From Synergistaceae bacterium (GTDB lineage: Bacteria; Synergistota; Synergistia; Synergistales; 79-D21), in the NCBI GenBank assembly GCA_012517195.1, contig JAAYVK010000031.1, positions 1 through 58,360 on the forward strand: a stretch of DNA of 58,360 nucleotides, in the 5' to 3' direction. The number at the start of each line of letters is the position of its first letter. The first letter of the stretch is position 1. The notes beneath the pieces are model-generated. The model was given only the letters and a program-made list of their open reading frames with translations. It was not told where the DNA came from and did not search any database. Positions 3,846 to 34,103 of the stretch are shown in pieces. Position numbers and translations under genes: made by a program.

Positions 3846-5234
3846 TCAGCCTGGGGACGGCCCGCCGGAGGCCGTCCCTTTTCTTTTCCAGCCCAGGAGG
3901 CAGCAGAGAGCGGAAACGAGAAGGCCGGAAAAGAGCGGGTTCCCGGGAAGGTGTGTTAGCGGCCACGAAAGGGTCAAGGCCAGCCCCGACAAGGAAGACA
4001 GGAAGGCCCAGCCGGCGGAAAGCCGCCCCGGGGCGAGCAGGGCGATCGAAAAGGGAAGGAAGGTCCCCGCGCCCCTCAACCCCATGCTCAGGTAACTCCA
4101 GGAGAGGATGAGGGACCCGGGTGCCAGGAGGGCCAGGAAGGCGGCAAAAAAGACCAGTGCAAGCAGGGTCAGGCGACTGGCCAGAAGTTGATCGCCTTCC
4201 AGCGGTTCTTTGCGCCGGAGAGCGGATGGGAGATCGCGGACCAGGTTCGTGGCGATGCCAAGGCAGAGCCCCGCCGCAGTTCCGATGATCGTGATGGCGA
4301 TCCCGCTCCAGAGGACCCCGGCGACAAACGGGGGGAAGTGCTGAGCAAGAAACTTCGGAAGGACCTGGGAGGCGACAAGTCCCGGCTGACGGACCCTCAT
4401 GCCGAGTCCCACCCAAATGGCAAAAAGTCCGAGGGGCGGCATCAGGACGGCGGAAAGAAGAGCGCCCTTCCGGGCGGTTTCTTCGCTTGAAGCCGAAAAA
4501 ACCGCCTGGATGTAGATCTGGGTGGTCATGACTCCGATCAGGAGAGAAAGGCCTGCATTCAGATCAACCCCCAGTCCCCTGCCAAAAAGGTTGAACCACG
4601 GATGGAGGGGCAGTGCATTCCAGAGCGGGGGAAGATTTCTCCCTTCCATTGCGGTGACGGCGGCGCAAACCGCCAGAACGAAGTAGAGAAAAGCGATTTT
4701 GGCTTTTCCCAGGACCCCGTAGCTCTTCAACCCGCCCAGAAGGATGAACCCCAGGACGGCCAGTGAGACCAGGCCCGCGGCGAGGGTGTCCGAGAGGGGC
4801 CAGATCCCCTGGATCATGGCCAGGCCCGCAAGGAACTGCGCCACTACCGAAACGAAGGTGCCGAGCGTCGAGGCAGCCAGGGCGACGATCCCGGTTTTCC
4901 TCCCATACTCCCGGGCAAGGAATTCCGGGATGGTCGAGAGTCCCGTTCGCCTCAGGGGGCGCGCAAACCAGAGGCCCAGGACAAGGCATCCGATTCCGCC
5001 TCCCAGGGTGAACCACCAGGCCGAGAGTCCCCAACGGTACGCCATTTCGACGGTTCCGACCGTGCTGGCTCCTCCCACCAGGGCCCCGAGGAGGATTCCG
5101 CTGACCTCCAGAGTGCCGGCGCTGCGTCCTGCCAGTGCGTAGTCTGCAACCGAGCGGACTCCCCTGCCCGAGAGAGTTCCCAAAAGAACAAAGGCGAGGA
5201 GAATGACGGCGGTTCCCATACCGAAGGCAACCAT
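3846..5234 (-). CDS. Sodium:solute symporter (SSS) family transporter
   Basis: Polytopic membrane protein. ADYALAGRSAGTLEVSGILLGALVGGASTVGTVEMAYRWGLSAWWFTLGGGIG is typical of the SSS N-terminal region. The longest ORF reaches 5312, but that extension is basic, non-hydrophobic and contains an 18-bp palindrome. Confidence 0.8.
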   Translation of the reverse strand: MVAFGMGTAVILLAFVLLGTLSGRGVRSVADYALAGRSAGTLEVSGILLGALVGGASTVGTVEMAYRWGLSAWWFTLGGGIGCLVLGLWFARPLRRTGLSTIPEFLAREYGRKTGIVALAASTLGTFVSVVAQFLAGLAMIQGIWPLSDTLAAGLVSLAVLGFILLGGLKSYGVLGKAKIAFLYFVLAVCAAVTAMEGRNLPPLWNALPLHPWFNLFGRGLGVDLNAGLSLLIGVMTTQIYIQAVFSASSEETARKGALLSAVLMPPLGLFAIWVGLGMRVRQPGLVASQVLPKFLAQHFPPFVAGVLWSGIAITIIGTAAGLCLGIATNLVRDLPSALRRKEPLEGDQLLASRLTLLALVFFAAFLALLAPGSLILSWSYLSMGLRGAGTFLPFSIALLAPGRLSAGWAFLSSLSGLALTLSWPLTHLPGNPLFSGLLVSALCCLLGWKRKGTASGGPSPG

Positions 5235-5262
5235 GGCTTTCGTCCCTTTCGTTCCGGATCTG

Positions 5263-5280
5263 CCGATATCGCGATATCGG
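5263..5280. promoter_or_regulatory. Perfect 18-bp palindrome CCGATATCGCGATATCGG (candidate operator)
   Basis: Exact inverted repeat in the divergent region between the SSS transporter (start 5234) and the DRTGG operon (start 5371). Confidence 0.5.
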
Positions 5281-5370
5281 GGAATTCTGTCCCGCTGACG
5301 GATCGTGGGCATTATGTTATTTTTATCACAGAGAACACCATGCTGACGCAGACCGGGGAGGTCGGACTTC

Positions 5371-5736
5371 TTGAATCTGAAGCAAATCGCAGCCTGTATC
5401 GGAGCGGAGATCCTTCATGGCGAAGCCCTGCTCGAAAAGGTCGAGATCGAGAGAGCTTACGCATCAGACCTGATGAGTGATGTGCTGGCCTTTGCCAGCC
5501 CTGGGACACTCCTTCTGACCGGACTGACCAACGTCCAGATCATCCGGACGGCCCAGATGATGGATATTCCAGCCGTAGTCTTCGTGAGGGGCAAAAAACC
5601 GCAGGAAGAAGCGGTAACCCTGGCCAGGTCAGCCGGCATGCCCCTTCTGGTCTCCTCGAAAAGCATGTACGAAACATGCGGCCTGCTTTACGCGGCCGGC
5701 CTGTCTCCCTGCGTCATCCCCACCCGGGAGGCATAG
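5371..5736 (+). CDS. DRTGG domain protein
   Basis: 121 aa. ...ASDLMSDVLAFASPGTLLLTGLTNVQIIRTAQMMDIPAVVFVRGKKP... matches the DRTGG fold pattern (LLTG in place of DRTGG). TTG start with GGGGAGG upstream. Confidence 0.7.
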   Translation: MNLKQIAACIGAEILHGEALLEKVEIERAYASDLMSDVLAFASPGTLLLTGLTNVQIIRTAQMMDIPAVVFVRGKKPQEEAVTLARSAGMPLLVSSKSMYETCGLLYAAGLSPCVIPTREA

Positions 5737-5739
5737 CGT

Positions 5740-6186
5740 GTGGATAGCCGTTATGAAGTGGAATTCACGGTGAGGGGGGACGATTTCCTCGCAGCGGGTG
5801 AAGCCTCCAACCAGATCAAGGAAACGCTGGTCATGCTGGGGGTCCCCTCCGCCATTTCCAGGAGGGCATCGGTCATTACCTACGAGGCGGAAATGAACCT
5901 CGTGATCCATGCAGGGGGTGGGATCCTGCGGGCGGTCATCACCCCGGAAAGGTTGACGATCGTGGCGACTGACCTGGGCCCCGGCATTCCGGACCTTGAC
6001 CTGGCCATGAAGGAAGGTTTTTCAACCGCCTCCGACCGGGTTCGCGAGATGGGATTCGGCGCCGGAATGGGGCTGCCGAACATCAAGCGCAATGCGGATG
6101 TCCTGAAAATCGACACGGAGGTCGGAAAGGGAACCACCTTGACTGCAACGGTTTTTTTCGGGCGGCAAGCCGAACAGGGGGGGTAG
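5740..6186 (+). CDS. RsbW/SpoIIAB-like serine-kinase-type ATPase (HATPase_c_2 family, anti-sigma-factor-like)
   Basis: 148 aa with an N-box EAEMNLVIHA, a G1 box DLGPGI and a G2 box GFGAGMGLPN. It starts 3 nt after the preceding stop. Confidence 0.75.
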   Translation: MDSRYEVEFTVRGDDFLAAGEASNQIKETLVMLGVPSAISRRASVITYEAEMNLVIHAGGGILRAVITPERLTIVATDLGPGIPDLDLAMKEGFSTASDRVREMGFGAGMGLPNIKRNADVLKIDTEVGKGTTLTATVFFGRQAEQGG

Positions 6187-6189
6187 GGG

Positions 6190-7503
6190 ATGGAAACTGG
6201 GGTAAAGATCGTCGAGGGAAGCTGCAAAGGATGCGTCAACTGCATCAAGTCCTGCCCAACCGAAGCCCTGAGGGTCATCGAGGGAAAGGTGAAAATCCTT
6301 CCCGAACTTTGCATTGACTGCGGGGAGTGTCTTCGAACCTGCCGGGAAAAAGCACTTGCCCTCGACGAAGATGATTGGGATCTCCTTAAAAGCCACGGCC
6401 CGGTGACGCTCATGGCAGACCCCACCTTTTGCGCCCAGTTCTCCCATTACTGGAGTCCGGGCCTGATTCGGGAAGCTTTGGCCTCCCTCGAAATGCAGGA
6501 CCTTTTCGACCAGGCCTCCATCGCCTTCGACCTGGCGGCGCTGGCAACCGCCCGCCAGCTGCAGGAGGCCTCCAGGGAGAGTCTTCCCCTCATCTCGATC
6601 TATTGCCCGGCGGTCGTGCGATTGATCCAGGTCCGCTTCCCCGAGTTGCTCCACCGGCTTGTGAAAACGGAAACCCCTCTTGAAACCGGAACCCTTCTCT
6701 GGAGAAGGGAAACCGGCTCGAAGGGCGGCGTCATCCTGGTGACCCCCTGCAGCGCAAAGGTGATGCTGGTAAGAGGGCCCGTGGGAAGGACAAAAAGCAT
6801 GATGGACCACGTCGTTTCGGTGAAGCGGCTGGCGAGGGACCTGCTTGCCGCCGGCCCCAAGGTGGAAGGCAAATCAGGCGCTCCCATCGGAAGCCGCTGG
6901 CTGGCCTGGGCGCTGCGGGGCGGAGAAAGCCGGCATGTCCGGGCGTTTTCCGAAAGGAAACTGACGACGATGGCCGTGTCTGGGCTCAGGAACACAATCG
7001 ACCTTTTACAGGACCTGGAACTCGGAAGACTGAAAGGCGTTGATTTCGTGGAATGCCGGGTTTGCGATCTCGGCTGCATCGGGGGGATCGGGAACGCGGA
7101 ATCCCGATTCCTTTCAGAGCTGAGGCTTTCCCGACAGCCCATCGAGTGGAAAGTCACGGCAGGGGAGCATGCCGCACTCCAGGAACTGTACGAAACCGGA
7201 ATCTGGAAGCTGGAGCAGCCCATCCAGCCAAGGCCCAGGCCCTCCCTGGCGGATACCCTCGACGTAGCGATGAAGAAATTGAAAGAGATGCAGGCCCTTT
7301 ACGCCGAACTGCCCCATATCGACTGCGGGGCCTGTGGGCGCCCCTCCTGCAGGGCTCTTGCGGAAGACGTGGTGAGAGGCGAGGGGGAGTTGACTGACTG
7401 CGTCTTCAAGCTGCGGGAACGGATCTCCCTCCTTGGGGAAGAGATCACCCTTTTGAGCGGCAAACTGCCGCACGCCTTTCATGAAAGGAAGCATGTCAAA
7501 TGA
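6190..7503 (+). CDS. [FeFe]-hydrogenase-like Fe-S protein (2x[4Fe-4S] ferredoxin domain, degenerate H-cluster domain, C-terminal CxxCxxxxC Fe-S domain)
   Basis: CKGCVNCIKSCP and CIDCGECLRTC are ferredoxin motifs. SIYCPAV, VTPCSAK and ECRVCDLGCIGGIGN parallel H-cluster motifs P1-P3. CGACGRPSCRALAEDV resembles the putative Fe-S cluster domain. Confidence 0.7.
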   Translation: METGVKIVEGSCKGCVNCIKSCPTEALRVIEGKVKILPELCIDCGECLRTCREKALALDEDDWDLLKSHGPVTLMADPTFCAQFSHYWSPGLIREALASLEMQDLFDQASIAFDLAALATARQLQEASRESLPLISIYCPAVVRLIQVRFPELLHRLVKTETPLETGTLLWRRETGSKGGVILVTPCSAKVMLVRGPVGRTKSMMDHVVSVKRLARDLLAAGPKVEGKSGAPIGSRWLAWALRGGESRHVRAFSERKLTTMAVSGLRNTIDLLQDLELGRLKGVDFVECRVCDLGCIGGIGNAESRFLSELRLSRQPIEWKVTAGEHAALQELYETGIWKLEQPIQPRPRPSLADTLDVAMKKLKEMQALYAELPHIDCGACGRPSCRALAEDVVRGEGELTDCVFKLRERISLLGEEITLLSGKLPHAFHERKHVK

Positions 7504-7835
7504 CCGTTTCGTCGTTGATCGAGGCACTCGGGCTGACCGTCCACCATGAAGGGAACGGGGATTGTCCCGTTTCCCGCGGAGTGGTCGGAGATCTTTTGAG
7601 CTTTGTCATGGGAGGGGCGCCGGAAGGTGCCGTCTGGGTGACCCTCCAGACTCACGTCAATATTGCGGCGGTAGCGGTTCTGAAAGACATCCCGCTAATC
7701 ATCCTGGCATCGGGGAGGACTCCAGACGCAGAGCTTCTCGAGCGGTGCCGCCAGGAAAACATTGGCCTTGCTGCCGCATCCGCTTCGCCCTTCGATGTCT
7801 GCGGTGCCCTCCACGACCTGGGGTTGAAGGGATAA
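7500..7835 (+). CDS. DRTGG domain protein (second copy)
   Basis: 111 aa. ...VGDLLSFVMGGAPEGAVWVTLQTHVNIAAVAVLKDIPLIILASGRTPD... has the same architecture as the 5371 gene. ATGA overlap with the upstream stop. Confidence 0.7.
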   Translation: MTVSSLIEALGLTVHHEGNGDCPVSRGVVGDLLSFVMGGAPEGAVWVTLQTHVNIAAVAVLKDIPLIILASGRTPDAELLERCRQENIGLAAASASPFDVCGALHDLGLKG

Positions 7836-7843
7836 ACGGGCGG

Positions 7844-8602
7844 ATGAGACCAGTCCGGGCGGATCTCCACATCCACACCGTCCTTTCTCCATGCGGCGGC
7901 CTTGACATGGGAGCTCCCGAGATCGTTGCCCGCGCCCTGAAGTGCGGACTTGAGGTGGTCGCGGTGACCGACCACAACACGTGTCGAAATGCGGCCGCCG
8001 TGATGAACGCTGCACGGGGCAAAAACCTTGTGGTTTTGCCCGGCCTCGAGGTGCAGAGCTCCGAAGACATCCATGCCGTAGTCCTTTTCGGGACTCTTGA
8101 GGAGGCCCTTGATTTTGAAACCTGGCTCTGGGAAGGATTCCCGAAGGTGTTGAACCGGCCGGAGCTTTTCGGCGAGCAAATCCTGATTGATGAGGAGAAC
8201 CGGATTCTCGCCGAGGAACCCGTTCTTTTGGTCCAGGGGGCCAGGCGCAGCATCGATGAGATCGTATCCGAGGCCAGGTCCCGAAGCGGGGTGGTTTTCC
8301 TGAGCCACGTTGACCGAGAGGCGTTCTCCTATCCAGCGGTTCTCGGCCCGATACCCCCGGACTACCCCGTCGACGCCCTTGAACTGACCTGCAACGCGAC
8401 GGAGATAACCGTGGAGAACTGCCGGAAAGCCTGCCCTTCGCTTCCCCTGATCCGGAATTCGGATGCGCACACCCTGTCTCAGATCGAGCCCCGCTGTTCC
8501 ACGGCATTCCTGGTGCAGGAACCGGATTTCCCAAATCTTCGGCGGGCTTTCCGGAATGAAGGGGGCTGCAGGATCCTGGACCCCTGGAAAGAAACGGCAT
8601 GA
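7844..8602 (+). CDS. PHP-domain metal-dependent phosphoesterase
   Basis: MRPVRADLHIHTVLSPCGG...VVAVTDHNT...PGLEVQS...LSHVD...NSDAH carries the PHP His/Asp motifs. The ATG at 7844 is 8 nt after the DRTGG stop. Confidence 0.8.
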   Translation: MRPVRADLHIHTVLSPCGGLDMGAPEIVARALKCGLEVVAVTDHNTCRNAAAVMNAARGKNLVVLPGLEVQSSEDIHAVVLFGTLEEALDFETWLWEGFPKVLNRPELFGEQILIDEENRILAEEPVLLVQGARRSIDEIVSEARSRSGVVFLSHVDREAFSYPAVLGPIPPDYPVDALELTCNATEITVENCRKACPSLPLIRNSDAHTLSQIEPRCSTAFLVQEPDFPNLRRAFRNEGGCRILDPWKETA

Positions 8603-8646
8603 AAAGGGAAGACTGCCCCTGAATGGGGTAAAATCGGGAAAAGGAG

Positions 8647-8859
8647 GTGTCCGCCTTGCTGGAAGAAAAGCCCGAAGAACTCAGCGCCCCCCAGCGGAAA
8701 CTGCAGTGCTGGTGCGGCCGAAGGATGATCCTGGTGGAATCCTTCCCCGATGATGGAACTTTTCGTTATGCCTGCCCCTTGTTGCTGGCAGGGGACACAA
8801 ATCACGACCAGCTTCTCAGCGAAGAAGAATACGTCGAAGAACCGGATGAGAAGCCGTAG
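8647..8859 (+). CDS. Small hypothetical protein (about 67-70 aa, acidic C-terminus, CxC...C)
   Basis: The ORF follows AAGGAGG at 8641-8647. The likely start is the TTG at 8656 or the GTG at 8647. It is on the same strand as the PHP gene, 45 nt downstream. I recognise no family. Confidence 0.4.
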   Translation: MSALLEEKPEELSAPQRKLQCWCGRRMILVESFPDDGTFRYACPLLLAGDTNHDQLLSEEEYVEEPDEKP

Positions 8860-8865
8860 TGCCCG

Positions 8866-9390
8866 CTACTCGGGTTTTCGAATGAACCAGAGTGCAGCAT
8901 TGTGGCTCGCGGCATCGAAGGAAGCAGGGCTTTCCGGAATAGAGGAAAGGGGCCCCTTTACGGTCATCCCGTAAAGGGGCAGGGAAACCCCCAGGGATTG
9001 AAGGCGGGCGAGGGTGTCCCGGCTAACCGAGAGCGAGACGAAAATGACGGTTGCCTCTGCCCTTTCTGTCGAAGATCCAGCCACGCCAATCCAGTAGTCG
9101 GGAGCGAGAGGAATTTTATCCAGGTACCGGCCAGGGCCGGCATTCCCGTTCATGTCCTGGATTGTCGTTCCCTTCTTCATCCAGACAGGCCATCTCCCGT
9201 AGTCTGCGTGATAGAGCACGGCGGCGCTTTTCATCGACCGCATGTCTTCCAGAATCCGGGTTGCTTCAGCCTTGCCTGTCGCAGAAAAGGAAACGAGCAT
9301 CATCGCTCCCGCCAGGATGCCAACCAGAAGGAGTACCACCAGGATCTCGACGAGCGTGAGCGCCGTCCGTTTCTTTCTGTTCCTTCCCAT
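8866..9390 (-). CDS. Prepilin-type N-terminal cleavage/methylation domain protein (pilin/pseudopilin-like)
   Basis: MGRNRKKRTA|LTLVEILVVLLLVGILAGAMMLV has a basic leader, Glu at +5 and a hydrophobic helix. Alternative starts lie at 9438 and 9447. Confidence 0.6.
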   Translation of the reverse strand: MGRNRKKRTALTLVEILVVLLLVGILAGAMMLVSFSATGKAEATRILEDMRSMKSAAVLYHADYGRWPVWMKKGTTIQDMNGNAGPGRYLDKIPLAPDYWIGVAGSSTERAEATVIFVSLSVSRDTLARLQSLGVSLPLYGMTVKGPLSSIPESPASFDAASHNAALWFIRKPE

Positions 9391-9533
9391 TTTCCGATCC
9401 CGCCTTTTGGGTCCGGCCGCTTTTCCTGAAAAGTTCATCGAAACCAAGCATACCCGAGAAACCGCAGCCCCGCAACCGGCCAGCCGTCCCGTCGCCGTTT
9501 CGCAGTTTCCCGGGCGGGTGCTAAGATATCGGC

Positions 9534-9962
9534 ATGAGAAAAAAACAAAATCCTCGAGTCGAACTGCGGGAAGGTCCGGTGGAACACCGGCTCCTGGAAG
9601 ATCTCTTCAAAGCCAGGGGGCTGCTTCCGGCGGAGGAAATCCGGTCACCCGAGGAAGAAACATCCCGGCTTGAGGAGACCTTGCGCCAGCCGGACTATTC
9701 GAAAGTCGAACGGGTCGTCCTGCGATACGAAAGGAAGGGGCACGGGGGGAAATCGGTGACCCGTGTCGAAGGTGTGCCTTTTGCGGAGGACGCCCTCGAA
9801 GACTTGGCCCGCGAACTCAAAAAGTCGTTGGGGTGCGGAGCCTGGGTGGAGGGGAACGAGATCCTCCTGCAGGGCGACCTGACCGAAAGGTCGCAGGCCT
9901 GGTTTCAGAAGAAGGGAGTAAGGCGCGTGGTCATCTCAAAAGCGGGTGGGTTCAGGAAATGA
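9534..9962 (+). CDS. yciH: SUI1/YciH-family translation initiation factor
   Basis: ...VVLRYERKGHGGKSVTRVEGVP...LKKSLGCGAWVEGNEILLQGD... is the SUI1 domain pattern. Confidence 0.75.
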   Translation: MRKKQNPRVELREGPVEHRLLEDLFKARGLLPAEEIRSPEEETSRLEETLRQPDYSKVERVVLRYERKGHGGKSVTRVEGVPFAEDALEDLARELKKSLGCGAWVEGNEILLQGDLTERSQAWFQKKGVRRVVISKAGGFRK

Positions 9963-10894
9963 GCTTTCGGGCTTTCCGGGAAGAAGACCTGGCAGCGCTT
10001 GTCAATGAAGTGCGCCCCCTGGCATCGGAAGGAAAAGTCGCGACCTATATCCCCGAACTGGCCCGGGGAAACCCAAAAGCCCTGGCGGTTGCAGCGATGG
10101 ATGGGAACGGATCGGAAGTTGCCGCCGGTGACAAGGAACTTCGGTTTACCATGCAGTCCATCTCGAAAGTCGTTTCGCTTTCCGTCGCCCTATCGGAGCT
10201 GGGTGAAAAGGCGGTCTTCAGCAGGGTGGGAATGGATCCCACCGCTGATCCCTTCAACTCCGTCATGCGCCTGGAGATGGTTCGTCCGCACCGTCCGCAG
10301 AACCCCCTTATCAACGCCGGGGCGATCGTCGTTGACTCCATGCTTCTCGCGGGTGGAGCGGAGGAGGCCTTCCATTCCATCCGGGAAATGGCAAGGCGTT
10401 TGACGGGCAACCCCCAACTCCGGGAAAATGATGCGGTCTATCTTTCCGAGAAAAGAACGGGAGACCGCAATCGTTCCCTCGCTTACTTCCTGAAGAGTGT
10501 CAAAACGATCCGCGGCGATGTAGAAGAAATCCTGGATGTCTATTTCAGGCAGTGCAGCCTTGAAGTGACGGTTTCGGACCTTGCCGTGCTCGCAGGGACC
10601 CTCGCCTTCGATGGGAAAAATCCCCTGACGGGAGAAACGGTGCTCCCCGGGAAGATCTGCCGGATCCTTAGAGCGCTGATGGCCACGTGCGGACTTTACG
10701 ACGGTTCAGGCGAGTTCGCGGTCAGGGTCGGGATTCCGGCAAAAAGCGGGGTCGGAGGAGGCATCGTGGCCACCGTCCCCGGCATCATGGGGATCGCTGT
10801 TTGCGGGCCCGCCCTGGATCACCAGGGGAATTCCATCGCAGGCATTGCGCTTTTGGAGCGTTTGTCCGACCGGTTCGGCCTGAGGGTTCTCTAG
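9959..10894 (+). CDS. glsA: Glutaminase A
   Basis: ...GKVATYIPELA...FTMQSISKVVSL...NPLINAGAI... and GIPAKSGVGGGI are glutaminase signatures. The ATG at 9959 overlaps the SUI1 stop (ATGA). Confidence 0.9.
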   Translation: MSFRAFREEDLAALVNEVRPLASEGKVATYIPELARGNPKALAVAAMDGNGSEVAAGDKELRFTMQSISKVVSLSVALSELGEKAVFSRVGMDPTADPFNSVMRLEMVRPHRPQNPLINAGAIVVDSMLLAGGAEEAFHSIREMARRLTGNPQLRENDAVYLSEKRTGDRNRSLAYFLKSVKTIRGDVEEILDVYFRQCSLEVTVSDLAVLAGTLAFDGKNPLTGETVLPGKICRILRALMATCGLYDGSGEFAVRVGIPAKSGVGGGIVATVPGIMGIAVCGPALDHQGNSIAGIALLERLSDRFGLRVL

Positions 10895-10908
10895 GTCCCG
10901 CTGGGTGC

Positions 10909-10945
10909 AAAAAAAACGGCTGGGACAGCAACATCGCCCCAGCCG
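10909..10945 (-). terminator. Rho-independent terminator of rubrerythrin
   Basis: The minus strand reads cggctggg-loop-cccagccg followed by TTTTTTTT. Confidence 0.75.
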
Positions 10946-10959
10946 GATCCGGCGTCCGT

Positions 10960-11454
10960 CTAGTCGATTTTTCGGTACGCCTGTTTTTTTGCCCCGCAGA
11001 TGGGGCAGCGATCCGGTGCCTCCCCTTCCGCGATGTGTCCGCAAACGGTGCAAAGGTAAAGGTCGGTAGTTTCTCCGCTGTGGAGGGTCTGCAGGGCTTT
11101 CTCGTAGAGGTGCGCATGAACCGCCTCTGCTTTCCCGACGAGATCCAGTTTCCTCGCTATGGGCTCGGCGCCTTCCTGCTTTGCATTCTCGACGAATTCC
11201 GGGTACATCCGGGTGAACTCGTACGTTTCCCCCTCAATGGCCGCCCTAAGGTTTTCTTCCGTGGTGCGGATCATTCCCAACGCCTTGAGATGATCGATCG
11301 CATGGATCGTTTCTGCTTCGGCAGCCGCCCTGAAAAGCTTTGCGGCCTGGTGGAACCCTTCCGCCTCCGCCTGGCGCGCGAAGGCAAGATACTTGCGGTT
11401 GGCCATCGATTCTCCAGCAAAGGCTTCCTTGAGGTTTTCCTCGGTCTTCTTCAT
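10960..11454 (-). CDS. rbr: Rubrerythrin
   Basis: MKKTEENLKEAFAGESMANRKYLAFA is a ferritin-like di-iron domain (ExxH motifs). The C-terminal CTVCGH...CPICG is a rubredoxin-like domain. Confidence 0.93.
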   Translation of the reverse strand: MKKTEENLKEAFAGESMANRKYLAFARQAEAEGFHQAAKLFRAAAEAETIHAIDHLKALGMIRTTEENLRAAIEGETYEFTRMYPEFVENAKQEGAEPIARKLDLVGKAEAVHAHLYEKALQTLHSGETTDLYLCTVCGHIAEGEAPDRCPICGAKKQAYRKID

Positions 11455-11480
11455 CTGTCAACATCCCTCCAAGTTTGAAA

Positions 11481-11495
11481 TTGTAATAATTATAG
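11481..11495. promoter_or_regulatory. PerR/Fur-family box (TTGTAATAATTATAG) overlapping the rbr -10
   Basis: It matches the 7-1-7 consensus TTATAATNATTATAA at 12 of 14 defined positions. Confidence 0.5.
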
Positions 11496-11517
11496 AAAAA
11501 TTGAGCCCGGGATGCAA
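11489..11517 (-). promoter_or_regulatory. Sigma-70-type promoter of rbr
   Basis: The minus strand reads TTGCAT-17 nt-TATAAT. The -10 lies about 35 nt upstream of the ATG, with GGAGGGA as SD. Confidence 0.65.
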
Positions 11518-11537
11518 TGCGACAAAAAGGCAAAACC

Positions 11538-12593
11538 TCACCCGGAGTCCACCTCCAGGGAGTGCAGGAGGACTTCAATGTCCTCATCCTTGCCTTGCAG
11601 GGGAAGGGGCAGGCCGATGGTCCTCTCGCCGAGGGCGTAAGCGGAAGGGCAGGAGAACCGAAGGGCAGGGTTCAGGCGCCAGAGAGATGGACACTCATAT
11701 CCGGATCTGCGCAGGACAAAACGGATCCGGTTTGCATCGAAAGCGACCCGGACGGGCAGCACGAGGGGTGCTGCGTCCTCCCCGACGGAGCGGAAAAGAG
11801 GGCGGATTCCGCAGCTTTCCAAGGACGGCCGGGCCAGGTGTTCAAGCAGGAGTTTCCCGAAAGTCCTTCTTCGGCGGGCTTCCTCCGGAAAATTCTCCGC
11901 GTTCAGCTTTGCCCACGAAACCGAAGAGGGGCGGCGGGGGATGGAGGAAAAGGAGGCTTCCAAATCTGCTTCCGCCTCTTCCAGCCTGGAAACTCCTTTT
12001 TCAAAGTCCCCCTTCTCAAGGCTCTCAAAAGCCTTCTCCCGTTTTTCCGCGATTCGCGGATCAGCCAAAGCCAGGTCGGCCTGCACCGGAAACCTGGAAA
12101 CGAGGGCTCCGCCATCCGGGACCTGGAAGAATTTTCGAAAACTGAAAAGTGCAAAATCCCCATCAAACCCAATGTTCCCGCTCAACGAGGAACCTGCGCA
12201 ATCTTCGACCAGGAAAGGCCGGTTTTCAGGGGACCTCGCCCGGAACCAGCCAAGAGCCCCTTGATTCGGGAATCCGAAGTAATGGATGATCAGCAAAAGA
12301 TCGCCCCGGGAAGGGCCGGAACCAGGAAAAACCGGTTTGAAGTCCGAAGAGTTTTCATAGAACCGCAGGCGGATTCCGCTTTTCCTGAAAACCGCGGGAA
12401 CGGATGGACAGGAATATGCCGGGAGCCATGCCGTTCCAGAAAATCCGTTTCCGGCCAGGTGCCGAAGGGCAAGAACCAGCGCGGATCGCCCGCTGTCTGT
12501 CGGGATGACGGTCCTGCCGATTTTCTCGTATTTGCCGAGAAACGGGTCGACTCCCTTTTTCCCGAGATTGAGTTCGAACGTTCGGTCGCCCAT
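11538..12593 (-). CDS. DegT/DnrJ/EryC1-like PLP-dependent enzyme (fold type I), function unknown
   Basis: SGRSALVLALRHL, LPAYSCPSVPAVFRKSG, LLLIIHYFGFPN, FLVEDCAGS and GDFALFSFRKFFQVPDGGAL parallel the DegT family blocks, including the candidate PLP lysine. The longest ORF reaches 12677 but would then overlap the divergent methyltransferase start. Confidence 0.55.
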   Translation of the reverse strand: MGDRTFELNLGKKGVDPFLGKYEKIGRTVIPTDSGRSALVLALRHLAGNGFSGTAWLPAYSCPSVPAVFRKSGIRLRFYENSSDFKPVFPGSGPSRGDLLLIIHYFGFPNQGALGWFRARSPENRPFLVEDCAGSSLSGNIGFDGDFALFSFRKFFQVPDGGALVSRFPVQADLALADPRIAEKREKAFESLEKGDFEKGVSRLEEAEADLEASFSSIPRRPSSVSWAKLNAENFPEEARRRRTFGKLLLEHLARPSLESCGIRPLFRSVGEDAAPLVLPVRVAFDANRIRFVLRRSGYECPSLWRLNPALRFSCPSAYALGERTIGLPLPLQGKDEDIEVLLHSLEVDSG

Positions 12594-12646
12594 GGGGATA
12601 TCATATCTCTCAAGGGGCCTTTGGATGAAAGGGGTTGATCTCCTGG

Positions 12647-13222
12647 ATGGAAAAGCCCTTTGACCGGATTGCTCCATATTACAACCGATGGATTGGCCGG
12701 TTCATGTCAGCGCGGATGGACCGGATGGCCGAGATGATCGCCTGTTCACCCGAAGAAACTCTCCTCGACCTTGGAGGCGGCACGGGGCTTTTTGCCAGGA
12801 GGCTGGTGGGCCGCTGCGGGGAAATCCACCTGCTGGACGAAAGCCAGCGAATGATCGAACAGGCAGACTGCGAAAAAATCCGCGTGCGTTCGGGAGACGC
12901 AACGAACACGGGATATCCGGAACGCTCCTTTGACTGGGTCGTCCTTTCGGACGTCATACACCATATCCGGGAACAGGATCGACTCTTCACAGAAGTTGCC
13001 CGGCTTCTGAAGCCCGGGGGGAGACTGCTGGTCAACGAGATCGACCGGGAAAAAACCTTGGGGCGGCTCTTTGGAAAGCTTGAGGGGTTTGTCTTTCCCC
13101 CGGTCTATCACGTTGGTTTTATGGAACTTTCCGAAGCACTTGCCCGCTACGGGTTCACCCTGCGGCAAAAGGTTCAGGACACCTGGAGTTTCATTGCATT
13201 ATGGGAGAAATCCCGGCGCTAA
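12647..13222 (+). CDS. Class I SAM-dependent methyltransferase
   Basis: MEKPFDRIAPYYNRW...LLDLGGGTGLFARRL (motif I)...LKPGGRLLV (motif post-II). An alternative TTG start lies at 12635. Confidence 0.8.
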   Translation: MEKPFDRIAPYYNRWIGRFMSARMDRMAEMIACSPEETLLDLGGGTGLFARRLVGRCGEIHLLDESQRMIEQADCEKIRVRSGDATNTGYPERSFDWVVLSDVIHHIREQDRLFTEVARLLKPGGRLLVNEIDREKTLGRLFGKLEGFVFPPVYHVGFMELSEALARYGFTLRQKVQDTWSFIALWEKSRR

Positions 13223-13845
13223 CCTTTGGTGCTGCGGTGTCGCTTCGACAATTCCCCCAGGATGTCCGTGGGCTTGAGATCGAGGGAAATCAAAGCGACG
13301 AGCAGGTGGTACAAGAGATCCGCAGCCTCGTAGCGAGTGCCTTCCCGATCCTTCAAAGCAACTGCCAGGGCGGTTTCGACGCCTTCCTCGCCCACCTTCT
13401 GCGCGATGCGGGAAGATCCTTCCTGAAGCAGGCGGGCCGTGTAGCTCTCTTCCGCGGGGGCGTGGCGCCTTTCCAGAAGGCATCTCCACAGTCGCCCCCA
13501 GAAGGTGCAAAAGGTTCCGCTCTCTCCCCAGAGAGACCTGTAGAAGCATGTCCTCTGACCGGTGTGACAGGCGGGCCCAGCGGGTTCAGCGAGAGCAAGC
13601 AGGGTATCGCCGTCGCAGTCGATTTTCATCTCCACGACCCGCATGGTGTTGCCGCTCGTTTCTCCCTTTTTCCAGAGGCGGTTCCGGGATCGGCTGAAAA
13701 GGGTCAATTCCCCCGATCGTTCCGTTTCCTCCAGGGCCTCCCTGTTGGCCCAGGCCACCATGAGCACTTCGCCCGATTCACAATCCTGGACGACGACCGG
13801 CACCAGGCCGGTTGAATCGAAACGGACCAGATCGAGAAGGCTCAT
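13219..13845 (-). CDS. hisI: Bifunctional phosphoribosyl-AMP cyclohydrolase / phosphoribosyl-ATP pyrophosphatase
   Basis: LVPVVVQD...[12 protein letters not shown]...[17 protein letters not shown]...DCDGDTLL...CHTG..CF is the HisI part. The C-terminal part is HisE-like. ATGA overlap with the hisF stop. Confidence 0.92.
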
Positions 13846-14615
13846 CTTGATTTTTCCACCTCGCTTCCGATTCGAACGGGAATGTCCCATTTCGCCAATT
13901 CCCGCTTGACTTCCCGGATCGATAGAATCCCATAGTGAAAAATCGAAGCGGCCAAAGCCGCATCCGCCCCGGATTCGAAGGCGCGGCGCAGATCTTCGGC
14001 TGATCCGGCCCCACCCGAGGCGATCAGGGGAACCGGCGCGGTTTCGGATACGGTCCGGATCAGCTCAAGATCGTATCCCTCGTTTGTCCCGTCCTGGTCC
14101 ATGCTGGTCAGGAGAATTTCCCCGCACCCGAGGCGCACACCTTCCCTGGCCCAGTCCACCACATCGAGGCCCGTTGCGGTTCGCCCCCCTTCGACAAGAA
14201 CCTCCCAACCGCCGCCAGGTTTCCGTTTGGCATCGATCGCCAGGACGACCGCCTGCCTGCCAAGGGTTCGGGCGCAATCCCGGATCAGGTTTGGATTGCG
14301 GACGGCCCCGGTATTCAGCGAAACCTTGTCCGCCCCAAGTGCGACGAGCTGCCGTGCCTCTTCGGCACGGGTGATGCCGCCCCCGACGGTAAAGGGGATG
14401 AAGAGCCGTTCCGCGACCGCCCTGACCCAGTCGGTCATGGTCCTGCGTCTTTCCAGCGAAGCGGAAATGTCCAGAAAAACGAGTTCATCCGCGCCTTCTT
14501 CCATGTAGGCAGCCGCGAGCTCCGCGGGATCCCCGGCATCCCTGAGGTTCCGGAACCGGATCCCCTTCACGACGCGCCCCCCCTTGATGTCGAGGCATGG
14601 GATGATTCTTTTCAT
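13842..14615 (-). CDS. hisF: Imidazole glycerol phosphate synthase cyclase subunit
   Basis: [18 protein letters not shown]...[12 protein letters not shown]...GGGI...SLNT.... The ATG at 14615 overlaps the hisA stop. Confidence 0.95.
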
Positions 14616-15334
14616 CAGCACTGGTGTTCCACCTCCAGGGCGTCTTCCAGCTTCAGATCCCCTTCGTACAGGGCCTTCCCGACGACCGCATCGGAAATCC
14701 CGAGGTCGGCAAGCGCCTGGAGGTCCTCCAGGCAGCGGATGCCGCCTGCCGCTGTGAATTGCATCCCGGGGACGGTCTTCCGCAGAGTGGCGTAGAGCCC
14801 GAGATCGGGCCCCTCTCCCGTTCCATCCCGTTCAACCGCAGTGACAAGGCAATGCCGGAAGCCGGCCCTGTACAGCCGATGCAGGGCTTCTTCCGGGCCC
14901 AGGGCCGCCTTTTCGGTCCACCCGCTGACGGCGACTTGCCCCTTTTTGATGTCGATCGTGGGGATGACGCGCTCACCGAATTTCCGGAAAAGATCGAAAG
15001 GCATTTCCCCGGAGGCGAAAAGCAGGCTGCCTACCATCGCAAAATCGGCCCCCATAGCGAGGACCTTCCCGATTGAATCCGGGGTCCTCAGGCCGCCTCC
15101 GTAACGGATCGTCAGGTCCAGTGCTGAAAGGGGCGGCAGAATGTCCGCGTGGCGGGGAGTCCCCCTCTGGGCCCCCTCCAGGTCGACCACGTGCAGCCGC
15201 GGGCATCCGCAGGACTTGAAGGCCGAGGCCACAGAAAGGGGGTCGTCGGCATATTCCGTTCTGGCGGAGTAGTCCCCCCGTGTGAGCCGGATCACCTTTC
15301 CCTGGTAAAGATCGATCGCGGGCCAGATTCTCAT
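14615..15334 (-). CDS. hisA: ProFAR isomerase
   Basis: [22 protein letters not shown]...LHVVDLEGA...GGGLR. The start overlaps the hisH stop. Confidence 0.93.
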
Positions 15335-15951
15335 GAGGATGTCCCCGAAAGGAAACCGATGAACGTCCCGAAAAGCCGCAGCCCCTCCCGGCCGCTTCGT
15401 TCCGGGTGAAACTGGAAGCCCGCGATCCGGTTCCGAAGGGACACCGAGCTGAAGCGAACGCCGTCAATGGCTGTGTCTGCAAGGCTTGCCTCGTTGACGG
15501 GGGCGGCGTAGCCGTGGACAAAGTAGGCATCGAGCCCCCCCTTGAAAAGATTGGTGATCCCGGTTACCTCCCTGAGCCAGGAAACTCGGTTCCAGCCCAT
15601 GTGCGGTGATTTTTTTAGGCCCGCAAGGGGGGCAACGGTTCCCGGGAAGAAACCGAGGCCTTCCGTGAGCCCGTCTTCCAGGCTTGCTTCGTAAAGAAGC
15701 TGCATTCCCAGGCAGATCCCGAGCAGGGGCTTGCCGCTGTTTCCCCATTCCCTGAGGGCAGGAATCCATCCCCTTCTGGCTAACTCTTCCCGTGCCGGAG
15801 GGAACGCTCCAACACCCGGAAGGACAAGCAAATCCACCTCCCCGGCCAGGTTTGAAGGGCTTTCCAGGAGAGATGCCTCATATCGGAGGGATGAAAGGGC
15901 CCGCAAGACGTTTCCCAGGTTTCCAGCCCCGTAGTCGATGATGCCGATCAT
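15331..15951 (-). CDS. hisH: Imidazole glycerol phosphate synthase glutamine amidotransferase subunit
   Basis: MIGIIDYGAGNLGNVLRAL...LPGVGAF...GICLGMQLL...FQFHPERS (Cys-His-Glu triad context). The ATG at 15951 overlaps the hisB stop. Confidence 0.95.
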   Translation of the reverse strand: MIGIIDYGAGNLGNVLRALSSLRYEASLLESPSNLAGEVDLLVLPGVGAFPPAREELARRGWIPALREWGNSGKPLLGICLGMQLLYEASLEDGLTEGLGFFPGTVAPLAGLKKSPHMGWNRVSWLREVTGITNLFKGGLDAYFVHGYAAPVNEASLADTAIDGVRFSSVSLRNRIAGFQFHPERSGREGLRLFGTFIGFLSGTSS

Positions 15952-16523
15952 ATCCAGAGTCCTTTCGTGCTGGCTTCTCGGCTGGAAGGGACGAGAGCCG
16001 ACCGGAGGGCCCTGGCGGCGCCCTTGAAGATTGCCTCCGCCAGGTGATGGGAATTGTCGACCGCAAGGGCATGGATATGGAGAGTCAGTTTCCCTTCCCG
16101 GGCGAAGGCCGTCCAGAATTCTCGAACCAGTTCCGTGTCGAAATCGCCGCAGCGTTGAGTGGGGAATACGGCATTCCAGGTGAGTCCCCCGCGGCCGCTG
16201 ATGTCCGTCGCCACCAGGACGAGCGTGCCGTCCATGGGGAGAGCGATCGAGGCGTAGCGTTGGCAGGGGCCGCTCCTGAAAAGATCCAGGAAAGCCGATC
16301 CCATAACGATCCCCACATCCTCGGTCAGGTGATGGGCGTCCACCTCGGTATCGCCCGACGCTATCAGTTTTGCCGGGATATCGGCATGGTGGAGGAAGAG
16401 GCCGATCATATGGTTCAGAAATCCGAGGGGAGTTTCCACCCGGACCGTTTCCCCCGGGGGAAGGAACTCGAACTCCACAGCCGTTTCTCTGGAACACCTC
16501 TCATACCGCTTTTCCATCCTCAT
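15948..16523 (-). CDS. hisB: Imidazoleglycerol-phosphate dehydratase
   Basis: ...RETAVEFEF...GFLNHMIGLFLHH...DAHHLTEDVGI...HHLAEAIFKGAARAL. The start at 16523 (alternative 16517) has SD GAGGAAAG and overlaps the hisG 3' end. Confidence 0.92.
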   Translation of the reverse strand: MRMEKRYERCSRETAVEFEFLPPGETVRVETPLGFLNHMIGLFLHHADIPAKLIASGDTEVDAHHLTEDVGIVMGSAFLDLFRSGPCQRYASIALPMDGTLVLVATDISGRGGLTWNAVFPTQRCGDFDTELVREFWTAFAREGKLTLHIHALAVDNSHHLAEAIFKGAARALRSALVPSSREASTKGLWI

Positions 16524-17163
16524 CGCCCGCTTTCCTCGAAGAACTGGAGAATTTGCCGATGATCTCCTCGATGCCATCCCAGGCCAGCTGAAGGCTTTTG
16601 CAGCTCGCAACGAATTTCAGGCTGACCGGGGCGATTTCCGCGATCACGGAAAGCGCGTTGGCCTTAAGGGTCGAGCCGGTCTGGACGATATCGACGATGC
16701 AGTCGCTCAGCCCCAGGCGGGGAGCCATTTCGATCGAACCGTTGAGGTGAACGAATTCGACCTGGATTCCCCGGTCCGCGAAAAAAGCTTCCGCGATCCG
16801 GGGGTACTTGGTGGCGACCCTGAGCCCCATCAGCCGGCTTTCGTGGCCGAGGAACCGAGCCGCGACTTTTTTCGGGCCCGCCAGGACGATCCGGCAAACC
16901 CCTCTTCCCGTGTCCGCAAGTTCCACGAGGGAAGCGCCGGTTTCCCAGATCACGTCCGAACCTGCGAGGGCAAGGTCTGCGATCCCGTAATGGACATAGA
17001 CAGGGACATCCATGGGCTTCGCGAGAAGAAAGCGGAACTCGCCCTCCTGGATGACCAGGGACCGCCCCCTTTCCCTCAGCCTGAGCGTTGGAATTCCGAG
17101 GTTTTCAAGAACTTCGACCGCCTCGTCCAGAACCCGCCCGGTCGGAAGGCAAAGCGTCAGCAT
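16501..17163 (-). CDS. hisG: ATP phosphoribosyltransferase, short (HisZ-dependent) form
   Basis: MLTLCLPTGRVLDEAVEVL...FLLAKPMDVPVYVHYGIADLALAGSDV...DIVQTGSTLKAN. At about 220 aa it has no C-terminal regulatory domain. The start overlaps the hisZ stop. Confidence 0.92.
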   Translation of the reverse strand: MLTLCLPTGRVLDEAVEVLENLGIPTLRLRERGRSLVIQEGEFRFLLAKPMDVPVYVHYGIADLALAGSDVIWETGASLVELADTGRGVCRIVLAGPKKVAARFLGHESRLMGLRVATKYPRIAEAFFADRGIQVEFVHLNGSIEMAPRLGLSDCIVDIVQTGSTLKANALSVIAEIAPVSLKFVASCKSLQLAWDGIEEIIGKFSSSSRKAGDEDGKAV

Positions 17164-18338
17164 CCGTTCTCCTCCTCTTCCATTGAATCCAGCGGGAAGG
17201 CGGTGCACGCCGGCAGGTCGATCCACCAGCCGTAGTTTCTCGAACGGGCGAGCTGGATCGCGCCCTCTCTATTCTCCTGCCAGCTCAGCTCGATTCGGTA
17301 TCCAGAGGCGATAAAATCATCCGCCCGCTCGAGGGCGACTCTCGGGGAAAGTTCTCCGCACCAGGCGACCGCAGGTGTTGGGCCTTCAAAGCGGGAAAGT
17401 GAGGCAACCGTCCTCAGGTCCAGCCCGAATCCAAGGGCCTGCCCAACAATGCCGTACTGTTCCAGCAGTCCGTCGTACCTTCCTCCGCCTCCGAGGCTGA
17501 AACCCGCACTTCCTGAAAAGATCTCGAAAACGGGGCCGCTGTAATACCCCAGTTCCCGGGCCAGGGCGAGGTCGAGCCTAAGGTTTTCTCCCAGCCCGAG
17601 TTCTTCAAGTGCTTCGACGATCAGGGCCAAATCCCGCAAGGGCTGTGTTTCACCGAAGAGGCGAGTTGCTTCCTTCAAGGTTCTGGGAGCGTTTCCCCGT
17701 AAATACGGAAGTCGAAAAAGCGGATCCTCCTCCCCTCTCGGTAGATGGGCTTCCCCAAGGGCGTCGAAGAAGGCTTCGTAACGGCGTTCAAGAAGCGCGA
17801 ACGTCAGCGTGGAAGCGAGCGAACGATCGAGATTCGAAAGGGACTCCCTGAGAAAACCCGCATGACCGAGCACGACGACGGGGGAATGAATGCCGAGCCG
17901 TCGCAGGGATCTCAGGAGAAGTGCGATGACTTCGACATCCGCCCCTTGTCCTTCCCATCCGAGAAGCTCCGCTCCAAACTGCATTTTTTCGAAGTCGGTT
18001 TCCGGCGGGATTGGAGCCCTGTAAAGGGGGCCCGCGTAGCAAACCCGCAGCGGTCTTTCCTGTGGCGAAAAGTGCGACGAGAGATAGGCGACTGCAGCCA
18101 GGGTCAGGTCCGCCCTCAGGAAGCAGGGTTCACCGGAAGGGGTGTAGACGGGGATCAGGCGCTTCCTGAAGCGTGGCGGGAGTTTTTCCCACGCGGATTC
18201 AAAAAGCTGGAGCCCCGGGGCGTAAAAGGGTTGGTAGCCGTATGCGGAGAAGGTTTCGAAAAAAACTTTCCTGCAGCGTTCGACCCTTTCTCCCTCCCTG
18301 CCCCCGAGCGTCCGTGTTCCCTTTGGTTGACGGCTCAA
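17157..18338 (-). CDS. hisZ: ATP phosphoribosyltransferase regulatory subunit
   Basis: HisRS-paralogue pattern: (M)SRQPKGTRTL...FETFSAYGYQPFYAPGLQLFE...FLRADLTLAAV...GGGGRYDGL. The TTG at 18338 overlaps the hisD stop (AATTGA). About 393 aa. Confidence 0.85.
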   Translation of the reverse strand: MSRQPKGTRTLGGREGERVERCRKVFFETFSAYGYQPFYAPGLQLFESAWEKLPPRFRKRLIPVYTPSGEPCFLRADLTLAAVAYLSSHFSPQERPLRVCYAGPLYRAPIPPETDFEKMQFGAELLGWEGQGADVEVIALLLRSLRRLGIHSPVVVLGHAGFLRESLSNLDRSLASTLTFALLERRYEAFFDALGEAHLPRGEEDPLFRLPYLRGNAPRTLKEATRLFGETQPLRDLALIVEALEELGLGENLRLDLALARELGYYSGPVFEIFSGSAGFSLGGGGRYDGLLEQYGIVGQALGFGLDLRTVASLSRFEGPTPAVAWCGELSPRVALERADDFIASGYRIELSWQENREGAIQLARSRNYGWWIDLPACTAFPLDSMEEEENGC

Positions 18339-19597: not shown

Positions 19598-19653
19598 GCA
19601 AGTCTCCTTTACTAGTTTAGTATAATAGCAAGATAAGAATTGGCGCGGATTGC

Positions 19654-34056: not shown

Positions 34057-34103
34057 GCAGGGAGGGACCGCAGGCCTTTTGCCGGCGGTCCCTCCCTGCT
34101 TTT
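34057..34103. terminator. Bidirectional terminator between htrA and the histidine kinase
   Basis: 15-bp stem gcagggagggaccgc/gcggtccctccctgc followed by TTTT. It abuts the kinase stop. Confidence 0.7.

Follow-up and report, generated by a model that had tools for sequence, protein, structure and literature searches.

A five-gene cassette and its products

Contig JAAYVK010000031.1 of assembly GCA_012517195.1, analysed here over its full 58,360 nucleotides (nt) and referred to as the window, comes from a member of the Synergistales and carries a forward-strand operon of five open reading frames (ORFs) that may encode a hydrogen-signalling complex. From 5′ to 3′ these are a DRTGG-domain protein (DRTGG1, ORF1; 5371..5736, 121 amino acids (aa), TTG start), a small GHKL ATPase of the SpoIIAB/RsbW kind (ORF2; 5740..6186, 148 aa), a putative sensory [FeFe] hydrogenase of group D (M2e), here HydS (ORF3; 6190..7503, 437 aa), a second DRTGG-fold protein that is a divergent paralogue of the first (DRTGG2, ORF4; 7500..7835, 111 aa) and a PHP-family metal-dependent phosphoesterase (ORF5; 7844..8602, 252 aa). 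Each has homologues across phyla with strong E-values, which marks all five ORFs as real genes.

The operon had been picked out in an earlier reading made without database searches (hereafter the original prediction), which saw five co-transcribed and translationally coupled genes. The sequence bears this layout out: successive ORFs are spaced by 3, 3, −4 and 8 nt, the start of ORF4 overlapping the stop of HydS in an ATGA, and both co-transcription and coupling are supported. A GGAGG Shine-Dalgarno-like motif lies ~10 nt 5′ of the TTG start of DRTGG1. The 58 bp intergenic region at 5313..5370, shared with a divergently transcribed SSF symporter gene (3846-5312, reverse strand), is the presumed promoter region; a consensus sigma-70 scan of positions 5100-9000 gave no site above shuffled expectation, and a terminator consensus scan of the same interval returned nothing exceeding it. 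A version of the PHP ORF that starts at a TTG at 7562 is an artefactual extension, aligned homologues beginning at ATG 7844.

Profile searches uphold all five domain calls, although not always through the families first named. PF07085 matched DRTGG1 (E 3.5e-7, 30.4 bits against a cutoff of 25.2), PF02811 matched the PHP protein (E 8.7e-8, 33.1 bits against 26.4), and HydS was matched by two 4Fe-4S ferredoxin motifs, by Fe_hyd_lg_C (E 1.7e-21) and by the PF04060 FeS domain (E 1.6e-13). In contrast, the ATPase fell below the cutoff for HATPase_c_2 (PF13581; 23.2 bits against 27.4) and was recognised by HATPase_c (E 5e-8, above cutoff), whilst ORF4 had no Pfam or NCBIfam match and was placed by other means, described below. 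A Pfam scan agreed with the original prediction that the five proteins hold no PAS, HisKA/Hpt (His-phosphotransfer), STAS, sigma-factor or DNA-binding domain.

The operon is very probably a group D (M2e, TamHydS-type) HydS cassette, an assignment we make because of the domain architecture of ORF3, its C-terminal Cx2Cx4Cx16C motif, the mapping of its residues onto TamHydS of Thermoanaerobacter mathranii and its lack of a PAS domain. Two ferredoxin-type 4Fe-4S motifs (C12/15/18/22 and C41/44/47/51), the H-domain ligands of [4Fe-4S]H (C139, C187, C292 and C296, the bridging Cys included) and the C-terminal motif (C379-x2-C382-x4-C387-x16-C404) are invariant in 46 homologues, down to 27% identity. 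A Cx2Cx4Cx16C motif without a following PAS domain is the M2e architecture (PMC8163306), and no PAS domain was matched in HydS by Pfam. When TamHydS positions were mapped via a Thermoanaerobacterium homologue (L049), E246 and E288 of HydS corresponded to TamHydS E252 and E289, the proposed proton path of group D (PMC10407848). T185 stands at the position of CpI M353, where M2e has Ser/Thr, and K190 is conserved. Around the C-terminal cluster are the acidic residues D378, E392 and D393, a feature reported from 70 group D sequences (PMC13104023). A sequence search of the PDB returned no group C or group D structure, the best match being HDCR HydA2.

TamHydS thus shares with the window protein its domain order, the absence of PAS and of Cys at the CpI C299 position, Ser/Thr at CpI M353, both proton-path glutamates, the acidic residues around the C-terminal cluster and a neighbouring histidine kinase-like ATPase. 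It binds an H-cluster, turns over slowly with a low Km for H2, and has been proposed as a sensor (PMC8163306); its turnover is orders of magnitude under that of catalytic enzymes (PMC10407848), although it is catalytically competent in both directions (PMC8163306). How it signals is stated to be open, and the histidine kinase-like ATPase beside its gene has been noted (PMC8163306). The two proteins also differ. The window HydS is only ~35% identical to the Thermoanaerobacterales homologue L049 and departs from TamHydS at several pocket residues, whilst its cassette is not 5′ of a bifurcating HydABC and has no AraC-type regulator beside it.

These pocket residues set the Synergistota proteins apart as a clade, with 33-39% identity to other HydS. 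Tyr138, Arg290 and His249 are present in 14/14 Synergistota sequences, where other group D sequences have Ala, Leu/Asn/Gln and Ala/Gly, respectively. Tyr138 occupies the position of TamHydS Ala137 and CpI Cys299, so that it is non-Cys as expected for the group yet not the usual Ala; Arg290 lies at the position of CpI Met497, which is Leu in TamHydS; and the invariant His249 is additional. Moreover, the position of CpI M353, elsewhere usually a conserved Ser/Thr, is relaxed to S/A/T/V within the clade. The bridging C296, K190, E246, E288 and G298-G299 remain invariant in it. For understanding how H-cluster reactivity is tuned by the pocket, the Synergistota HydS provide a natural series of active-site mutants.

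The original prediction had likened the operon to the neighbourhoods of group C sensory hydrogenases and to the hfs locus of Thermoanaerobacterium. The comparison comes near but does not hold, since the Fe-S protein is of group D, and hfs has a PAS-containing HfsB and the PP2C HfsC (PMC11837493), whereas Pfam matched neither PAS nor SpoIIE in any of the five proteins. Like the cassette, group C systems (M2f: TmHydS, R. albus HydS, and HfsB with HfsC) have a hydrogenase-like sensor that combines N-terminal clusters with a four-Cys motif at the C-terminus; enzymes of phospho-signalling are encoded beside it, and it has been proposed to inform fermentation control of H2 (PMC5707799, PMC11837493, PMC13104023). 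However, they have PAS together with a PP2C phosphatase or Ser/Thr kinase, whereas the cassette has neither PAS nor PP2C and surrounds its hydrogenase with a GHKL ATPase, a pair of DRTGG proteins and a PHP enzyme.

Relatives of HydS were found in at least 592 species in a scan of one genome per species, and in 217 clusters at E ≤ 1e-30 in a library of 50%-identity representatives. Public names are misleading in that group D HydS homologues are often labelled 'RnfB'. A link to NiFe-HydABCSL, suggested by the names 'HydS' and 'HydL', was rejected, as these are an unrelated [NiFe] small/large subunit pair.

Searched against the PDB, the ATPase family profile found SpoIIAB best (1til/1l0o, E 1.6e-12), followed by RsbW (6m36, 1e-4), with histidine kinases behind. 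Proteins of the SpoIIAB clade of GHKL ATPases are signalling proteins. All nucleotide-binding boxes are intact and invariant in the family alignment (N box Y48-E49-x3-N53-x3-H57; G1 box D78-x-G80-x-G82; G2 box G105-F-G-A-G-M-G-L-P-N114), and an N-terminal DF..AGEAS motif is conserved. The cassette thus resembles the SpoIIAB-SpoIIAA-SpoIIE and RsbW-RsbV-RsbU modules in joining a small Ser-kinase-type GHKL ATPase to small alpha/beta partners and a metal-dependent phosphoesterase. It differs from them in having no STAS protein, sigma factor or PP2C, its partners being of the DRTGG fold and its phosphoesterase of the PHP type; moreover, the ATPase scores far under the cutoff of the spoIIAB model TIGR01925 (36 bits against 135).

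DRTGG1 is a small alpha/beta protein with family-invariant D33, S36, T50, T60, D65, G74 and K75 and the motif DLMSDVLA...LLTGL...FVRGK. Its family profile matches the DRTGG domain of the C. perfringens CBS-pyrophosphatase (3l2b) and AF1212 (2ioj). ORF4 is a DRTGG paralogue, on the following grounds: the ORF1 and ORF4 families align in hhalign with a probability of 99.8% (E 1e-28), local jackhmmer searches started from either converge on one set, and the AlphaFold2 (AF2) model of ORF4, with a predicted local distance difference test score (pLDDT) of 89, has as its top Foldseek match AF1212, the Pfam DRTGG structure (template-modelling (TM) score 0.83), followed by the DRTGG domain of the CBS-pyrophosphatase and then by the N-terminal domain of HPr kinase. 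The NCBI name 'serine kinase' given to homologues of DRTGG2 is a misnomer arising from this HPrK-N similarity, and the public label 'HPr kinase' is misleading too.

Family-invariant residues of DRTGG2 are D31, L33, S34, W46, T48, N54 and A59. A D-L-(M/L)-S motif, together with a Thr and an Asn, is invariant in both families. The predicted model places the invariant D/S/T/N where a strand ends and where helices begin, which is where folds of this kind usually bind anions. When the family-name motif is read against the alignment, its canonical D-R and T-G-G appear to be replaced in the cassette proteins (LTGLxN, VRGK). In the CBS-pyrophosphatase insert (3l2b/3l31), AF1212 and the HPr kinase N-terminal domain, the same fold serves as a regulatory or oligomerisation module on a phosphoryl-transfer enzyme; in the cassette it is stand-alone, duplicated and marked by its own invariant DL(M/L)S motif.

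The metal site of the PHP protein is predicted to be complete and trinuclear, with invariant putative ligands H9, H11, H44, E69, H77, H155, D207 and H209 (numbered from ATG 7844) and Cys17. The last is invariant in an LSPC motif that follows the HxH motif in PHP families A5 and A6, and we infer that it is the third-metal ligand, a position which we take to be His or Asp in other PHP enzymes. Such a cysteine could confer a different metal preference or redox sensitivity. By both sequence and fold (AF2 model, pLDDT 96), the best matches are EndoQ (5zb8, E 1e-14 and 2e-15), TM0559 (2anu), RNase AM (7ug9) and the pAp phosphatase Cv1693 (2yb1), and the model is also near polymerase PHP domains. With these enzymes it has in common the PHP barrel and full metal-ligand set; it differs in sharing their catalytic core only and in its invariant Cys17, and it has no counterpart to the Zn ribbon or the DNA-binding C-terminal part of EndoQ (252 aa against ~400 aa). 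The PHP protein-tyrosine phosphatases YwqE/CpsB (3qy6) rank 44th (E 4e-3, TM 0.38). The Joint Genome Institute (JGI) annotates the protein as 'PHP family Zn ribbon phosphoesterase'.

Conservation, fusions and neighbours of the cassette

For comparison, 80 loci were retrieved from the one-genome-per-species scan, and the T. velox locus was added separately. Loci were compared by local profile searches and clustering of all ORFs, and the counts that follow refer to loci with enough flank. The complete order DRTGG1-ATPase-HydS-DRTGG2-PHP, on one strand, is found in 64/73 loci, which answers the question of co-occurrence in related genomes raised by the original prediction. It is present in all 13 Synergistota loci and in 51/60 others (Bacillota, a Syntrophorhabdus metagenome-assembled genome (MAG) and an Armatimonadota MAG), and T. 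velox has the same gene order. The ATPase gene lies directly 5′ of HydS in 75/77 loci and DRTGG1 lies 5′ of the ATPase gene in 73/77. PHP never occurs without DRTGG2, whereas DRTGG2 is found without PHP in three loci. Reduced forms consist of ATPase-HydS alone in spirochaete loci and one further locus (L057), and of DRTGG-HydS alone in Anaerosolibacter.

Natural fusions join neighbouring members of the cassette. Among the top 150 representative HydS clusters, 12 (~8%) exceed the usual 410-490 aa; ten long HydS were scanned and seven contained a recognisable fused domain. Four carry DRTGG2 at the C-terminus of HydS (P0125, P0139, P0213 and P0245), one joins the ATPase to HydS (P0127) and two join DRTGG1 to HydS (P0162 and P0192). 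At two loci (L035 and L080) DRTGG1 is fused to the ATPase. No PHP fusion was seen among the best 120 of 977 PHP homologues. Taken together, the alignments and gene orders indicate that the cassette is ancient and widespread and that its pairwise fusions run along the chain DRTGG1-ATPase-HydS-DRTGG2.

Outside the Synergistota, the cassette is mostly followed by, or stands divergently beside, five genes, and it usually forms the 5′ half of a HydABC operon. The five neighbours are the genes for the thioredoxin-like 2Fe-2S protein HydC, for another HATPase (~185 aa), for a small protein (~125 aa), for the NuoF-like subunit HydB and for a group A HydA. HydABC-type genes were found beside the cassette in 30/38 non-Synergistota loci with at least 7 kb on both sides. 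TamHydS, too, is encoded upstream of a bifurcating hydrogenase (PMC8163306). Linkage to a group A bifurcating HydABC operon is thus the typical setting of group D enzymes, although it does not strictly define them. In one locus (L084, 8815-14805) the catalytic subunit after the cassette is a molybdopterin formate dehydrogenase (NuoEF-type) in place of the hydrogenase. Elsewhere (L083, 2168-5242), a group C-like hydrogenase and a SpoIIE phosphatase lie directly 5′ of a group D cassette and HydABC, which shows that group C and group D sensors are distinct modules able to coexist. The product of the 'hisK' (histidine kinase-like) gene of the Bfu operon is explicitly outside the holoenzyme (PMC9304861).

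The second GHKL ATPase is consistently followed by the ~125-aa protein (L014, 13119-14061, and equivalents in ~49 loci). The copy of the small protein in L084 has a weak thioredoxin-like 2Fe-2S match and that in L014 has no Pfam match at E ≤ 1e-5. This arrangement parallels the ATPase-HydS pair; it may form another unit for redox sensing or receive the signal of the cassette.

None of the eight Synergistota loci flanked on each side by at least 7 kb has HydA, HydB or a second ATPase nearby. The window agrees: as the original prediction had stated, motif and Pfam scans found no catalytic hydrogenase or maturase in the 58 kb, with no second hydrogenase-like ORF and no ORF of at least 250 aa with the radical-SAM motif CX3CX2C, nor any hydrogenase or maturase domain amongst the 40 larger ORFs scanned outside the operon. 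These are housekeeping genes, a few having no Pfam match. The missing linked catalytic hydrogenase is thus a trait of the Synergistota as a lineage. Neither a STAS protein nor a sigma factor was found in the operon or among the scanned window ORFs. Likewise, no conserved transcription factor accompanies the cassette in the loci compared: Rex occurs in four and SPOR-domain proteins in three to four, the genes being otherwise unrelated. The absence of a DNA-binding output, described by the original prediction as a module with "no visible output", is therefore general to the cassette and not specific to the window.

Cloacibacillus carries a stand-alone cassette of this kind (L010) and has hydABC and hydA1 in its genome, [FeFe] hydrogenases being possessed by Synergistota (PMC10838667). 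The presence of these genes elsewhere in the genome makes [FeFe] maturation plausible in the phylum.

Full-text searches found no paper tying DRTGG to a hydrogenase operon or describing the PHP partner, and no description of the cassette, so that the earlier view of an incompletely described system stands. The cassette is conserved but uncharacterised as a whole, and the window holds a lineage-specific, stand-alone instance of it with a remodelled pocket.

A signalling model and its alternatives

We propose, with a probability of about 0.5, that the operon encodes an H2-sensing (or closely related redox-sensing), ATP-dependent signalling complex built around a group D hydrogenase and acting post-translationally. 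That the cassette is an H2 or redox signalling module of some sort seems somewhat more probable still. In the mechanism that we envisage, HydS would carry an H-cluster and react with H2 slowly and with high affinity, as TamHydS does. The SpoIIAB-like ATPase, seated on HydS with both DRTGG proteins, would read the redox or conformational state of HydS and use ATP either to phosphorylate a conserved DRTGG Ser/Thr or to drive an ATP-dependent partner switch, the candidate phosphorylation residue being the invariant serine of D-L-(M/L)-S at a helix N-terminus. The PHP protein, co-varying with DRTGG2, would supply the reset or effector step by resetting the switch or hydrolysing a phosphorylated ligand. 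The output would fall post-translationally on an electron-bifurcating hydrogenase-type enzyme, encoded by an adjacent gene in most phyla but at another genomic site in Synergistota.

The nature of the switch is the more tentative part. Ser/Thr phosphorylation of a DRTGG protein by the ATPase, reversed by PHP, may well not be how it works. The kinase/phosphatase pair of the original prediction is weakened: the ATPase is indeed nearest to SpoIIAB and RsbW, but the PHP protein resembles EndoQ and RNase AM far more than YwqE/CpsB.

Several points weigh against the model as a whole. As modelled, the PHP core looks nuclease- or nucleotidase-like far more than protein-phosphatase-like. The fusions of DRTGG1 to the ATPase, of DRTGG to HydS and of HydS to DRTGG2 suit a role of the DRTGG proteins as stable subunits or adaptors no less than one as transient kinase substrates, and the reduced cassettes of some lineages indicate that the five parts are not all obligatory. 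In TamHydS, electron paramagnetic resonance found the C-terminal cluster unresponsive to H2 (PMC13104023), which leaves the path of the signal within the protein unclear. The bulky or charged Tyr138, Arg290 and His249 could change or abolish binding of the [2Fe] subcluster, and no hydEFG lies within the 58-kb window.

The affinities of the PHP protein raise an account in terms of nucleotide or ligand signalling, which we regard as unlikely. PHP would then cleave a small nucleotide or RNA as a phosphodiesterase or nucleotidase, the DRTGG proteins would be regulatory subunits that bind nucleotides or metabolites, as in CBS-pyrophosphatase and Pta, the GHKL protein would be an ATP-sensing clamp and not a protein kinase, and through HydS the H2 level would set how a nucleotide signal is turned over or how mRNA is processed. 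This would suit the best matches of PHP (EndoQ, TM0559, RNase AM and the pAp phosphatase Cv1693), its JGI name, its co-variation with DRTGG2, the match of the DRTGG fold to the regulatory insert of a nucleotide-regulated pyrophosphatase and to the HPr kinase N-terminal domain, and the modelled placement of the invariant DRTGG D/S/T/N at helix N-termini, which is typical of phosphate-binding sites. However, the cassette conserves no nucleotide cyclase or synthetase and no known receptor for a second messenger, the PHP protein is without the Zn-ribbon and C-terminal DNA-binding parts of EndoQ, and the ATPase is closest to proven protein kinases. A different departure, which we consider improbable, starts from HydS itself: the Synergistota protein may have lost the [2Fe] subcluster and become an Fe-S redox sensor, of the ferredoxin pool or O2, like the hydrogenase-like proteins of the Nar1/NARF type and not a sensor of H2. 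The Tyr at CpI C299/TamHydS A137, the Arg at CpI M497 and His249 in 14/14 Synergistota sequences, the variable residue (S/A/T/V) at CpI M353, the uncoupling of the cassette from any hydrogenase operon and the lack of hydEFG in the window would all be in keeping with such a loss. Yet the invariance of C296, K190, E246, E288 and G298-G299 in the clade suggests that selection for an H-cluster persists, [FeFe] hydrogenases are encoded by Synergistota such as Cloacibacillus (PMC10838667), which presumably have the maturases as well, and the Tyr hydroxyl could replace a missing proton relay instead of filling the pocket.

We give little credence to a reading in which the cassette is not a sensor at all, being either an accessory redox or activation module for HydABC/Bfu enzymes, which would use ATP for reductive (re)activation or assembly with electrons from H2, or a low-activity ferredoxin-linked hydrogenase (HydS) and its partners. 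In most non-Synergistota loci the cassette is indeed co-operonic with HydABC or a Bfu-type formate dehydrogenase, there is no output domain anywhere in it, and the PF04060 Fe-S domain is also found in electron-transfer proteins such as RnfB; TamHydS, moreover, is catalytically competent in both directions (PMC8163306). Against this stand the intact, conserved cassettes of Synergistota that have no Bfu genes within 7-10 kb, and the general knowledge that GHKL proteins of the SpoIIAB clade serve in signalling. The turnover of TamHydS, orders of magnitude below that of catalytic enzymes (PMC10407848), also speaks against it, as do purified HydABC holoenzymes, which are not reported with cassette proteins, the histidine kinase-like gene product of the operon being excluded (PMC9304861).

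Under the H2-signalling model, an analogue in concept would be HoxBC with HoxJ/HoxA of Ralstonia eutropha, in which a slow, high-affinity hydrogenase and a GHKL-type kinase report H2 (PMC5707799, PMC8163306). The metal site ([NiFe]) and the proteins are unrelated, however, and the cassette has no equivalent of either HoxJ, a true histidine kinase that carries a PAS-like domain, or HoxA, a response regulator that binds DNA. A more specific and speculative version, which we would hold only loosely, is a partner-switching device in which DRTGG replaces STAS, PHP replaces PP2C and a group D hydrogenase supplies the H2 input, its output being direct post-translational control of a bifurcating hydrogenase or formate dehydrogenase and not transcription. 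The Synergistota version would then be a re-tuned sensor that sets amino-acid fermentation against ambient H2 in syntrophic communities.

Group D [FeFe] hydrogenases are being actively studied by biochemists as putative H2 sensors, and the relay of their signal is an openly stated gap, there being no PAS domain and a C-terminal cluster that does not respond to H2 (PMC8163306, PMC13104023). The comparative data name four conserved candidate partners, with Rosetta-stone fusions, and an output that is apparently not a linked transcription factor. Sensing of H2 governs the redox balance of fermenting and syntrophic organisms, the yield of ethanol relative to acetate in engineered thermophiles, and the passage of H2 to methanogens in digesters and guts, habitats in which Synergistota commonly ferment amino acids.

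Other features of the window

The SSF gene is the direct upstream neighbour of the cassette in the window and in 8/11 other mapped Synergistota loci, and several genera share the backbone OmpH-HAD-adenosine kinase-SSF(−)-cassette-RadA-NfeD-Band7-LeuRS. A functional link to the upstream adenosine kinase and SSF genes was considered and set aside, the association being best explained as backbone synteny. In T. velox and most Synergistota loci RadA directly follows PHP, whereas in the window the two are separated by ~11 kb (8866-19600). This insert contains a pilin-like gene with an N-terminal methylation motif and genes for SUI1, glutaminase, rubrerythrin and a methyltransferase, as well as his genes.

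A 70-aa ORF with a CxC...C pattern and an acidic tail (8647-8859, forward strand) lies 45 nt 3′ of the PHP gene. Of the other Synergistota loci, only that of the closest relative (L003) keeps it, at 52% identity and in the same position after PHP; it may be a lineage-specific small protein or non-coding. The only match to the PADLOC library was a marginal Ppl-like one at the PHP C-terminus, and a defence system was rejected.

Further downstream, the SUI1-like ORF (9534-9962) and the glutaminase ORF (9833-10894), both on the forward strand, overlap by ~130 nt as listed; because Pfam matches the glutaminase only from residue 67 onwards, its translation probably begins downstream of the listed start. 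The 514-aa ORF that ends the his cluster (17157-18701, reverse strand) has a HisRS-like (tRNA-synt_His) match only from residue 130, and is either over-extended or a HisZ-like protein with an extra N-terminal region. A classical two-component pair, comprising a HisKA plus HATPase_c kinase and an OmpR-type response regulator (34103-35681, reverse strand), lies 26 kb from the cassette and gives no sign of a link to it.

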